This document shows, piece by piece, positions 19,835 through 47,019 of a DNA stretch of 64,000 nucleotides. The number at the start of each line of letters is the position of its first letter. The stretch's first letter is position 1. The DNA lies in the NCBI GenBank assembly GCA_021158245.1, contig JAGGVB010000195.1, forward strand, positions 265 through 64,264, in the 5' to 3' direction. Source of the stretch: a bacterium (GTDB lineage: Bacteria > Zhuqueibacterota > QNDG01). The notes below the pieces were generated by a model. The model was not told the DNA's origin. It saw nothing but the letters and a program-made list of their open reading frames with translations, and made no database searches. The translations under genes were made by a program, and so were the position numbers.

Positions 19835-20041
19835 AAAATTTGTCTGCTGTTAGGAGATTTTTATAATGCAGGGCAGAATTATTGAATTTATTTTTAAATA
19901 AGTACTGCAAATTTAGCAGGAGGGAAAACGTGTTATATAAAGTACACAGATATTGTAAAATTAACTTGCATTTTACTATGAGAATTTTTATAATATCTGT
20001 CTGCATTAAATCATTCCACCTATCAGAGAGTGGAACAGTTT

Positions 20042-25288: not shown

Positions 25289-25350
25289 TTGTTTTTTTAT
25301 CTTTATTTTTGTACATTGGATGTATATTAAATGTCAGTACAAATAATAAA
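25289..25350 (+). promoter_or_regulatory. Toxin-antitoxin promoter with overlapping palindromic operator
   Basis: TTGTTT-17-TACATT (25289-25317); inverted repeat TTTATTTTTGTAC...GTACAAATAATAAA (25302-25350) covers the -10 box. Confidence 0.6.
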
Positions 25351-25359
25351 GGTGTAATC

Positions 25360-25620
25360 ATGGCAAGAACAGCAGTAATTCAGGCGCGCATTGACCCGGA
25401 AATAAAGAAAAAAGCACAAAATATTTTTTCAGAATTAAACATTACTATGTCCGAAGCAATTTCTTTATTTCTTACTCAGGTTACTTTAAACAGAGGTATC
25501 CCTTTTGATATACGTATTCCCAACAGATTAACTGCAAGGACCCTGAGTGATTCAGAAACAGGAAAAGAGCTGCATCAGGTTTCCGATGTGAATGAGTTGT
25601 TTAAGGAGCTGGATATTTGA
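25360..25620 (+). CDS. dinJ: RelB/DinJ-family antitoxin
   Basis: MARTAVIQARIDPEIKKKA..IF..L.ITMSEAI.LFL.QV...RGIPFDI; ATG 25360 preferred over track start 25309. Confidence 0.88.
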   Translation: MARTAVIQARIDPEIKKKAQNIFSELNITMSEAISLFLTQVTLNRGIPFDIRIPNRLTARTLSDSETGKELHQVSDVNELFKELDI

Positions 25621-44328: not shown

Positions 44329-44349
44329 GCTGTGCAGAAGGGGCGAGTG

Positions 44350-45267
44350 ATGGCAAAAAAATTGAATGGTAAAATAGGGAGAAGGGAATTTATTAAAACT
44401 GCTGCCGGGACTGCAGCAGGGCTTTCATTATTTCCCCTGTCGTCGTTTTCAAAATATTCAGATAAACCTTCCATTATCGTTGTAAAGAACGGGTCCCCTG
44501 CAGAGCTTGTCAGGAATGCTGTGGAGAGTCTCGGTGGTATGTCAAAATTTGTCAGCAAGGGCGATATTGTAGTGTTAAAGCCGAATATGTCGTGGGACAG
44601 AGTTCCTGAACAGGCTGCTACAACAAATCCTGAAGTTGTTGCTGAGGTTGTAAAAATGTGTTTTGATGCAGGGGCCAAAAAAGTAAAAATTTTTGATAAT
44701 ACATTAAATGAAGTAAGAAGATGCTACAAAAGAAGCGGTATACAGAAGGCTGCTGAAGAGTTGGGAGCGGATGTCATGTACGTGCGTCCCGGAAAATTTA
44801 AAAAAACATCAATTCCCGATGGAAAGCTTGTTAAGTCGTGGGCGTTGTATGAAGATGCTCTTGATGCTGATGTATTGATAAATATTCCAATTGCAAAGCA
44901 TCACTCGCTTTCCGGCGTTTCTCTCGGTATGAAGAACTATATGGGGTATCTCGGAGGTAACAGAGGCAAGTTTCACAGAGATTTTAATGTTAAAATTACT
45001 GATCTTAATACAAAATTTAAAGCGGATCTTACTATTTTGGATGCATATAGAATGCTTCTGCGAAATGGCCCGAGCGGCGGGAATGTTAAAGACGTTGCAT
45101 TAAAAAAGATAGTTGTTGCAGGAACAGACCCTGTTGCAGTGGACAGCTATGGGGTTAAAATGTTCGGTTTAGACCCTCTGAAAACAGGATTTTTAAAAGA
45201 GGCGGAAGAACGCGGACTGGGGCAAAATAATTTGTCCCGCATAACAGTAAAAACGATATCTCTGTAA
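44350..45267 (+). CDS. Tat-exported DUF362 family protein
   Basis: RREFIK twin-arginine signal; VVLKPNMSWD, TTNPEVV, INIPIAKHH, GMKNYMG, DPVAVD. Confidence 0.88.
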   Translation: MAKKLNGKIGRREFIKTAAGTAAGLSLFPLSSFSKYSDKPSIIVVKNGSPAELVRNAVESLGGMSKFVSKGDIVVLKPNMSWDRVPEQAATTNPEVVAEVVKMCFDAGAKKVKIFDNTLNEVRRCYKRSGIQKAAEELGADVMYVRPGKFKKTSIPDGKLVKSWALYEDALDADVLINIPIAKHHSLSGVSLGMKNYMGYLGGNRGKFHRDFNVKITDLNTKFKADLTILDAYRMLLRNGPSGGNVKDVALKKIVVAGTDPVAVDSYGVKMFGLDPLKTGFLKEAEERGLGQNNLSRITVKTISL

Positions 45268-45305
45268 AAATAGATATTTATAAAATATTTTTAATAAATA
45301 ACTAT

Positions 45306-45477
45306 CCTGCATTATTAAGAAGTATAATGAAAAGGCGGATTCACACTGAAAATGTGCGGAAATGACATGAGTGAAGCATGTCATTTTCGGAAATTTTAAT
45401 CAGGAATCCAGGGCCGGGACAGGTGTTTATTCCTGAATATTCGTTTAAATATGGTTGTGATTCATGAATAATGCAGG
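45306..45477. mobile_element. 172-bp MITE with 11-bp terminal inverted repeats and 4-bp target duplication
   Basis: CCTGCATTATT (45306-16) / AATAATGCAGG (45467-77), flanked by CTAT at 45302-05 and 45478-81; no ORF; internal hairpins. Confidence 0.8.
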
Positions 45478-45501
45478 CTATATAATTCAGGGGTCTCATA
45501 T

Positions 45502-47019
45502 ATGAGAACTGCCCGTCGTATTTCTCAGATGTTTTTTTTACTCCTTTTTTTTGGGCTTTTTTTGTGGGCTACTTATCCTTTAAAGCGATTCATTCCTGTA
45601 GATATATTCTTTCGGTTTGATCCTCTTGTTTCTATAACTGCATCTCTTGCTGCAAGAAGTTTTATCTTGAAGTTACTGCCGGGGCTGCTGCTGCTGACAG
45701 TTTCTATCTTTCTCGGAAGATTTTTCTGCGGCTGGATTTGCCCTTTGGGATTCATTATAGATATTTTTAACAAGCTTTTCCCAAAAAAGAACACTGAAAA
45801 GACCGGTTCTGATTTCAAGTGGATAAAGTATTTTATTTTTCTTGCCTTATTTACAGGTGCTCTGTTTTCAATACAGGTAACAGGCCTCTTTGATCCGTTC
45901 TCAATACTTACGCGATCTACGACTCTGTTTTTGTATCCTTTATTCGTAATTACAACGGAGGGCATATTTAATGCTCTTGTAAGTGTTCAATTTCTTGAAG
46001 ACCATGTTTATCAGTTATGGGATGTATTAACAGGCTCGGTGCTTCCGGCATCTCAGCAGATCTTTAAAGGGTCCGGATTAATAGCTCTTATTTTTATAAT
46101 TATTGTATCTTCCGCTGTTTTCCAGCGTCGTTTCTGGTGCAGAAATATTTGCCCTCTCGGAGCTTTGTACGGGTTGTTCTCAAAATTCAGAATATACAAA
46201 AGGAATGTATCGGATAAATGCACAGCCTGCGGTATGTGCCGAACAGAATGCAGGATGGATGCAATATCTGAGGATTATCTGTCAACAAATAATTCAGAAT
46301 GCATATCATGCATGGATTGTGTAGAAGTGTGCCCGGTTGATGCTGTCAAATTTTCCTTTTCCAAAATAGAAGTAAATAAATCAAAAGATGTTGATTTGAA
46401 CAGAAGAAGAATTCTTGCAGCAGGCCTTACAGGAATTGTTGGTTCTGTAATTGTAAAAAATGCCGTATCAAAACCATCGGTCAAAGGCAGTGTTGTAAGG
46501 CCGCCGGGGTCAGTGGAAGAATCAAAATTTCTGGACCTCTGCATTAGATGCGGTGAGTGTGTAAGAGTTTGTTCCACATCAGGGGCAGGTCTGCAGCATG
46601 CGCTGACTGAAAGCGGTTTTCAGGGAATCTGGACGCCTGTACTTTTTCCTGAAACAGGTTACTGCGAATATAACTGCAACCTTTGCGGAGAAGTATGCCC
46701 TACAGGAGCAATCAAATTTTTACCGATCAAAGAGAGGCAGCAGATTAAAATGGGCACTGCTCATTTTGACAAGACAAGATGTATCCCGTGGTATTATGGT
46801 GAGGACTGCATGGTATGTGAAGAACACTGTCCTCTTCCTGATAAAGCAATTAAGTTCCGTAAAACAGATGTAGTGACAATTGACGGTAAAAAAGCAGAGG
46901 TAAATTTACCCTATGTAATAGAGGATTTATGCATAGGATGCGGAATATGCGTAAACAGATGCCCTCTTGAGGGTAAAAAAGGTATTTTTCTTACTAATGC
47001 TGATGAACAGCGTTTATAA
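45502..47019 (+). CDS. Membrane 4Fe-4S binding protein (NapH/MauN-like plus ferredoxin domains)
   Basis: GRFFCGWICPLG, RFWCRNICPLG, several CxxCxxCxxxCP motifs, VVRPPGS. Confidence 0.9.
   Translation: MRTARRISQMFFLLLFFGLFLWATYPLKRFIPVDIFFRFDPLVSITASLAARSFILKLLPGLLLLTVSIFLGRFFCGWICPLGFIIDIFNKLFPKKNTEKTGSDFKWIKYFIFLALFTGALFSIQVTGLFDPFSILTRSTTLFLYPLFVITTEGIFNALVSVQFLEDHVYQLWDVLTGSVLPASQQIFKGSGLIALIFIIIVSSAVFQRRFWCRNICPLGALYGLFSKFRIYKRNVSDKCTACGMCRTECRMDAISEDYLSTNNSECISCMDCVEVCPVDAVKFSFSKIEVNKSKDVDLNRRRILAAGLTGIVGSVIVKNAVSKPSVKGSVVRPPGSVEESKFLDLCIRCGECVRVCSTSGAGLQHALTESGFQGIWTPVLFPETGYCEYNCNLCGEVCPTGAIKFLPIKERQQIKMGTAHFDKTRCIPWYYGEDCMVCEEHCPLPDKAIKFRKTDVVTIDGKKAEVNLPYVIEDLCIGCGICVNRCPLEGKKGIFLTNADEQRL

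Follow-up and report, generated by a model that had tools for sequence, protein, structure and literature searches.

The locus

The window analysed here, a stretch of 64,000 nucleotides of bacterial DNA, contains a gene of the DUF362 family with a Tat-signal-like N-terminus (PF04015, E = 3.9e-53) that is followed on the same strand by a gene for a NapH/NapG-like membrane poly-ferredoxin with several 4Fe-4S motifs (TIGR02163, E = 2.6e-29; PF00037/PF12801). The profile matches agree with the assignment of both genes in a preliminary description of this DNA. Between the two genes lies a 172-bp sequence that is bounded by terminal inverted repeats (TIRs) and flanked by a direct repeat of CTAT. The features of the locus are as follows.

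44332-45267, plus strand: DUF362 gene, the upstream partner
45302-45305: left copy of the target-site duplication, CTAT, identical to 45478-45481
45306-45477, plus strand: non-autonomous element (MITE) of 172 bp that belongs, as a diverged copy, to the repeat denoted family A, delineated from the sequence, the genome copies and their alignment
45306-45316, plus strand: left TIR, CCTGCATTATT
45337-45409: degenerate double-hairpin core (inverted repeat I1 and family alignment), which contains the hairpin at 45360-45386
45360-45386: first internal hairpin, AAATGACATG-N7-CATGTCATTT, read from the sequence
45400-45436: second internal hairpin, TCAGGAAT-N21-ATTCCTGA (repeat pair I7), part of the minimum-free-energy fold
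45460-45477, minus strand: right TIR, CCTGCATTATTCATGAAT when read inward
45478-45481: right copy of the target-site duplication, CTAT, read from the sequence
45502-47019, plus strand: membrane poly-ferredoxin (Fe-S) gene, the downstream partner

The inverted termini are perfect over 11 bp, with the right copy, AATAATGCAGG, at 45467-45477, as seen both by reading the sequence and in a repeat search (pair I2). The same search also reveals an imperfect palindrome of greater extent, each arm being 33 nt long (45337-45369 and 45377-45409), and the word TATAAT occurs at 45323-45328 and 45481-45486. The 11-bp TIRs, the CTAT duplication, the two hairpins and the two TATAAT words are all located where the preliminary description had placed them. 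The terminal 11-mer, with at most one mismatch, is found 9 times in the window, compared to 2.0 +/- 1.3 times in shuffled sequences, and none of the 100 shuffles reaches 9. The predicted folding energies of the element are -55.5 and -42.5 kcal/mol on the two strands (z = -5.2 and -5.5 against shuffles); such strong folding is expected because the element is a palindromic repeat. There is no transposase gene within the 172 bp, which contain only mechanical minus-strand open reading frames of 52 and 63 codons that extend beyond the element, so that the element has no credible coding capacity. A comparison of the element with the Rfam covariance models yields a best hit with E = 0.2 and 15.9 bits (the gathering score being 100), and the sibling and relative loci have no match in Rfam either.

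A diverged repeat family in the same genome

The preliminary description had suggested a search for further copies with other flanking tetranucleotides, and several such copies were found at unrelated loci of the assembly (3.2 Mb, 233 contigs). Five of these, on other contigs, are detected with E <= 1e-8, and further copies that are weaker or incomplete emerge with blastn and nhmmer, so that the strong matches and the partial copies together occupy seven contigs. In total, 6-8 diverged copies of family A are present at unrelated sites, 70-81% identical to the copy in the window. They are located on the following contigs (C).

C67:12509-12692, family A copy
C202:~765-938, family A copy
C168:~25309-25430, family A copy
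C177:3527-3661, family A copy
C140:~82654-82766, family A copy
C97, family A copy, right end only
C117:43755, family A copy, left end only

The alignment of the copies gives a consensus of about 180 nt with a TIR longer than the 11 bp seen in the window copy. In order, the consensus comprises the left end CTTGCATTATTCACAAATTTAAG, hairpin 1 (GGATTCC..GGAATGAC), a G-rich linker, hairpin 2 (GTCATTCCTGA..TCAGGAATCC) and the right arm (..GGTTGTGATTCATGAATAATGCAGG). Relative to the other family members, the left end of the 172-bp copy lacks 9 nt (TCACAAATT) just inside the TIR, and both hairpins are degenerate in this copy. The flanks of the copies are YTAR-like, namely, CTAT/CTAT, TTAG/TTAA, CTAA/TTAA, CTAA/CTGA, -/TTAG and -/CTAG (a dash denotes a missing side). 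Several siblings have an imperfect duplication (3 of 4 positions) or a degenerate left end, and the flanks of the older copies are decayed.

The same assembly contains a second small family with ends of the same type, IS1380-like as detailed below. One copy, C38:1294-1433, is 140 bp long and has a perfect duplication (CTAA|CCTGGATTATTCATA...TATGAATTATTCAGG|CTAA), and the second copy, C37:2541-2670, adjoins TTAG at a contig end. A loose genome-wide search for TIR pairs produced 302 pairs, compared to 92 in the reversed control, but these are mostly chance pairs and are left out of the counts given here. Taken together, the multiple diverged copies, the TIRs, the YTAR-type 4-bp flanks, the lack of coding capacity and the absence of the element from orthologous junctions (see below) identify it as a MITE, as originally proposed.

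IS1380-family elements with the same ends

Members of the IS1380 family are characterized by 5'-CC termini and a duplication of 4-5 bp. The element in the window has 5'-CC termini and a 4-bp duplication, and on this basis the preliminary description had guessed at a mobiliser of the IS1380 type. The guess is now supported by four intact IS1380-family elements, all of them 1.6-1.8 kb long with the same termini, perfect 4-bp duplications and a transposase gene. All four score above the cut-off of 180 bits for the IS1380 transposase profile NF033539; the first three in the list below have 17-18-bp ends (CCTGNATWATTCATAAA) and one transposase open reading frame each, of 453-481 aa and 376-401 bits.

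L228, from the same order: 1655 bp; ctag/CCTGCATTATTCATAAAA...TTTTATGAATAATGCAGG/ctag; 460 aa; 390 bits
L227, from the only other genome of the same genus: 1621 bp; ends CCTGAATAATTCATAAA; duplication CTAA; 453 aa; 401 bits
L226: 1790 bp; CCTGGATTATTCATAAA; duplication ATAT; 376 bits
L169, from a Bacteroidales MAG: 1696 bp; ttag/CCTGAATTATTCATAAA...TTTATGAATTAATCAGG/ttag; 359 bits

The terminus carried by the intact element of the same order is CCTGCATTATTCATAAA. Compared with the TIR of L228, CCTGCATTATTCATAAAA, the window element agrees at 16 of 18 positions at its right end, including all of the first 14, and at 14 of 18 at its left end. A 17-nt terminus pattern occurs 6 times in the genome that contains the window, 9 times in the same-genus genome, and 5 and 17 times in two genomes of the same order, with zero occurrences in the reversed control in all four; in the same-genus genome the IS is both multi-copy and intact. 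In the literature, ISEfa26 of the IS1380 family is described with this terminus (IRL CCTGAATAATTCATAATTTTTCAAAA, IRR CCTGAATAATTCATACCTTTTATAAA, with the repeats beginning CCTGAATAATTCATA; PMC13417996), and therefore this type of terminus is an established IS1380 feature. Accordingly, the autonomous IS with the same ends that the preliminary description had recommended looking for exists in the same order and in the same genus, and the genome itself contributes end relics only. The element is clearly neither a single-copy sequence nor one for which no IS with the same termini exists.

A tblastn search of the 233 contigs with the four IS1380 transposases detects no intact cognate transposase in the assembly. 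The relics comprise a left end at C95:3398-3456, with the flank CTAG, and a right end at C224:175-261 (within 119-265), with the flank CTAA. The former shares 95% identity with the initial 59 nt of the IS in the same-genus genome, beyond which the similarity is lost, and the latter is 91% identical to the last 87 nt of that IS. Judging from these sequences, the lineage evidently once hosted the cognate IS. Past the left-end relic (C95:3394-3599), there is unrelated sequence and the start of a new open reading frame (MSEYKKLTHT...) that runs off the contig.

Another IS1380-like gene of the assembly, at C92:1-1187, was considered as the partner and rejected. This gene is frameshifted and truncated where the contig begins, represents another subgroup and is not bounded by matching ends; its N-terminal part matches NF033539 with E = 3.6e-14 (also PF13701), the downstream sequence shows only a vague resemblance to the terminus (...TGAATTTATGTGTAGG), and tblastn reveals no relation to the cognate transposases.

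Elsewhere in the window, the sequence at 19840-19872 (...GGAGATTTTTATAATGCAGG/GCAG) resembles a solitary right end of the IS1380 type (cf. TTTTATGAATAATGCAGG). A left-end word with one mismatch lies 205 bp upstream of it, inside a coding sequence, probably by chance.

The insertion site and the downstream gene

The gene pair that contains the element is conserved. In all 19 relatives of the same order that possess the locus, the DUF362 orthologue (56-67% identical) is located next to the Fe-S gene in the same orientation. In 15 of them, 6-25 nt separate the coding regions, and the remaining four have spacings of 51, 111, 240 and 721 nt; the corresponding distance in the window is 237 nt. Among seven related loci from metagenomes (up to 80% protein identity), the two genes are adjacent in six, separated by 21-24, about 95 or 293 nt; in the seventh case, the contig (L204) breaks off roughly 117 nt beyond the DUF362 stop codon and does not reach the Fe-S gene. 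The element is absent from the junction in the 19 relatives of the order and in six of the seven metagenome loci, the closest of which is about 80% identical at the protein level. This distribution suggests insertion rather than ancestral presence. No empty site was found in the same species or genus; the only same-genus genome does not have the DUF362/Fe-S locus, and an exact-protein look-up returned no record.

Enlarged spacers with unrelated content are present at L190 (genome G011, 240 nt), L194 (genome G005, 721 nt) and L205 (metagenome, 293 nt), one of which includes a small open reading frame. The junction of the two genes may repeatedly tolerate insertions.

When the element and one CTAT (176 bp in total) are removed, a 58-nt AT-rich spacer is restored (...AATAAATAACTAT/ATAATTCAGGGGTCTCATATATG), in which ...AATAAATAACTAT joins ATAATTCAGGGG. 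The TATAAT at the right junction remains in this spacer and is, therefore, ancestral sequence. Hence, of the statement in the preliminary description that a second TATAAT marks the right junction, the position (45481) stands, but the word is not made by the element; it belongs to the pre-insertion spacer (...AACTAT|ATAATTCAGG...). The 20 nt proximal to the Fe-S gene, including AGGGG, and the gene start are outside the element and intact.

Other bacterial MITEs are known to affect the transcripts of neighboring genes, and the present element could, in principle, have been co-opted, either as a promoter of the Fe-S gene or as an attenuator or terminator of read-through into it, so that the two genes would now be expressed separately; the preliminary description had likewise suggested that it could uncouple or re-drive the downstream gene. 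The addition of 176 bp to a spacer of about 58 nt (now 234 nt) in an otherwise tightly packed pair, the AT-rich -10-like words and the very stable fold (-55.5 kcal/mol) are compatible with such a role. However, a consensus scan finds 3 promoter-like sites, compared to 2.1 +/- 1.5 in shuffles, and no terminator-like sites in the element; furthermore, the junction TATAAT is older than the insertion, and the ribosome-binding region of the Fe-S gene was left intact outside the element. Co-option is therefore an unlikely, although conceivable, outcome, and a measurable change in the expression of the Fe-S gene is to be expected only with low probability. By default, the insertion would be neutral or nearly so, beyond placing a stable hairpin in what is probably a bicistronic mRNA. 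The element shows no sign of a special function.

The double-hairpin module

The interior of the element is a lineage-specific double-hairpin module that is not derived from the IS. The consensus of the core is GGATTCCnn..nnGGAATGAC, a linker, and GTCATTCCTGA..TCAGGAATCC. In other families of the order (L014-L035, e.g., L016:~1430-1650), the core GGATTCCCGC..GCGGGAATGAC..GTCATTCCTGA..TCAGGAATCC is located within elements that end in ATCCGTTGTGCATAATT... and ...AATTATGCACAACGGAT. Because the same core is found inside differing terminal repeats, it represents one module common to MITE-like families with unrelated ends.

In the genome that contains the window, the double hairpin is also part of a far more abundant repeat that is marked by the word CCGGCATCTGAAAAT. 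With up to 2 mismatches, this word occurs 95 times on 58 contigs, compared to 3 times in the reversed control, often as two direct copies 161-192 nt apart that bracket GTCATTCCCGC-N9-GCGGGAATCC AGGGGCGGAGG ... CCTCCaCCCC ... GGATGCCCGC-TTTCG-GCGGGCATGAC (e.g., C43:18298-18463, C198:10191-10358, C203:3836-3998, C211:2971-3136, C230:8241-8402 and C128:98-290). Many copies of this repeat are located at contig ends, and it has no match in Rfam.

These observations raise the possibility that the propagating or functional unit is the internal double hairpin, that is, a REP/BIME/REPIN-like sequence or a structured RNA, and that the outer repeats are incidental. The hairpin pattern GTCATTCC[CT]N9-20[AG]GGAATCC is found 17 times in the genome and never in the reversed control, the stems covary (GC/GC, TC/GA, AA/TT, GA/TC, TGA/TCA), the unit recurs in other families of the order within elements with unrelated ends, and the fold of the element has a z-score of about -5. 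Against this, the outer ends of the element are IS1380 TIRs, and REP-type mobility does not generate the 4-bp duplication that accompanies them. Moreover, the Y1/RAYT transposase (PF01797) has no match in the same genome, whereas 31 of the 33 genomes searched possess one; being nearly ubiquitous in relatives with or without the module, it does not track the module. The hairpins are degenerate in the window copy, and there is no Rfam match. Propagation through the double hairpin itself is accordingly very improbable.

IS5-family transposases

Transposases of the IS5 family classically duplicate YTAR. The YTAR-type 4-bp flanks would thus be compatible with mobilisation of the MITE by an IS5-family enzyme, and a decayed transposase of this family (NF033578, positions 130-169 and 384-418) is located not more than 600 bp beyond the left end of family A at C117:43755. 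Nevertheless, the homology of this relic with a second copy (on C22) stops about 240 bp short of the terminus, which consequently does not bound the relic, no IS5_1 transposase locus is accompanied by the terminus CCTGCATTATTCA in 8 genomes where this terminus occurs, and intact IS1380 elements do possess it, so that a role of IS5, the least probable of the readings considered here, is largely refuted.

The decayed IS5-family relics (NF033578) span C117:44000-44361 and C22:12540-12764. A frameshifted IS5-family gene with DUF772 and DDE regions is located at C5:33059-34335.

The terminus in public genomes

A scan of public genomes, one per species, with the pattern CYTGCATTATTCAYRAAT identifies at least 120 loci; this count proves nothing alone because about 140 chance matches are estimated for a pattern so short, and it is the flanks that carry the evidence. 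Among the matches listed, 73 of the 125 termini abut YTAR and 87 of the 125 abut NTAN; the most common flanks are TTAA (20), TTAG (20), CTAA (18) and CTAG (15). The YTAT class, to which the CTAT of the window element belongs, is minor (7 of 125 termini among the matches listed). When the TIR pairs at most 500 bp apart are considered, again among the matches listed, 37 of 56 have identical 4-bp flanks and 47 of 56 match at three or more of the four positions. The lengths of the small TIR-bounded elements among these matches cluster at 160-175 bp, and their interiors vary by lineage, with the ends alone in common. The hosts among the matches listed include Calditrichota, Marinisomatota, Aminicenantes, KSB1, many Bacteroidota, Zetaproteobacteria, Latescibacterota, Desulfobacterota, Nitrospirota and cyanobacteria.

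These data tentatively suggest a broader scenario, one that is possible although we incline slightly against it. A single IS1380 clade (ends CCTGNATWATTCAYAAA) with a piggyBac-like YTAR/TTAA preference might have repeatedly spawned MITEs across many phyla, each of which would have captured a hairpin module of the host lineage between ends of 14-18 nt; in the order studied here, the module would be the covarying double hairpin, itself an undescribed REP-like repeat. The distribution of the ends, the target logo and the sharing of the module, on which this scenario draws, are directly observed. As they stand, the data connect a widespread class of small TIR elements with IS1380-family transposases, and a clear YTAR target rule with 4-bp duplications emerges from them for this clade. 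None of the papers searched links MITEs to IS1380 or derives them from it.

Origin and age of the element

Altogether, it is highly probable that the sequence at 45306-45477 is a MITE with IS1380-family TIRs that was mobilised in trans, was inserted in a conserved spacer and is now an old fossil. Having no transposase, the element would offer only TIRs as a substrate for an IS1380-family DDE transposase. These TIRs match those of the clade with the ends CCTGNATWATTCAYAAA, which includes ISEfa26. A full-length IS would supply the transposase in trans, and the enzyme would bind both ends and excise or copy the element. Insertion would then occur at a YTAR-like tetranucleotide through a 4-bp staggered cut, which in this case would have yielded the CTAT duplication, the target being the short stretch between the DUF362 and poly-ferredoxin genes, a conserved pair that is probably transcribed as a unit.

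The copy in the window is probably no longer mobilisable, to judge from its sequence and its siblings: the left repeat has lost 9 nt, the copies are 19-30% diverged, and no intact partner IS is present in the assembly. Its present immobility is a matter of likelihood because a MAG built from short reads, here in 233 contigs, may lose repeated IS copies. For annotation, the element explains the unusually long spacer in a conserved redox pair and flags repeats that fragment the assembly.

Comparison with known systems

The closest counterparts are IS1380 elements of the IS1678/ISEfa26 type, with which the element shares the 5'-CC ends and the terminus (CCTGAATAATTCATAATTTTTCAAAA in ISEfa26 compared to CCTGCATTATTCATGAAT at the right and CCTGCATTATT at the left end of the element); the related intact elements described here also have 4-bp duplications. 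Unlike these ISs, which are about 1.6-1.8 kb long, the element measures 172 bp and encodes no transposase, and its interior is unrelated beyond the 11-18-nt ends.

Correia elements of Neisseria, ERIC/IRU and RUP are bacterial MITEs that are co-transcribed with neighboring genes. The present element is similar to them in being small, TIR-bounded, non-coding, multi-copy, located in an operon spacer and endowed with a strong hairpin potential, but it differs in the ends, in the presumed transposase family and in the target (YTAR with a 4-bp duplication here, TA for Correia). With REP/BIME/REPIN sequences, it has in common a core that consists of an inverted pair of palindromic units forming a long hairpin, with covarying stems and dispersal over the genome. 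In contrast to those systems, the genome has no RAYT gene, there is no conserved GTAG-type head, and the pair of units is situated between IS1380 ends with a target duplication.

Among eukaryotic transposons, the comparison concerns piggyBac, which is strict for TTAA, generates a 4-bp duplication and excises precisely. The ends that start with CC and the 4-bp duplication centred on TA are shared, whereas the target in the present case is the looser YTAR, with TTAA, TTAG, CTAA and CTAG nearly equal among the matches listed. This likeness is of some interest because IS1380 is a prokaryotic relative of the TTAA-targeting piggyBac, and IS1380 transposases have been used as the prokaryotic outgroup of piggyBac (PMC10813416). 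Against these known systems, the element in the window is a genuine MITE of the IS1380 type and an ordinary fossil of mobile DNA, of a kind that is already known; its wider interest is modest and lies in the cross-phylum link between IS1380 and MITEs, the YTAR target rule and the shared hairpin module.
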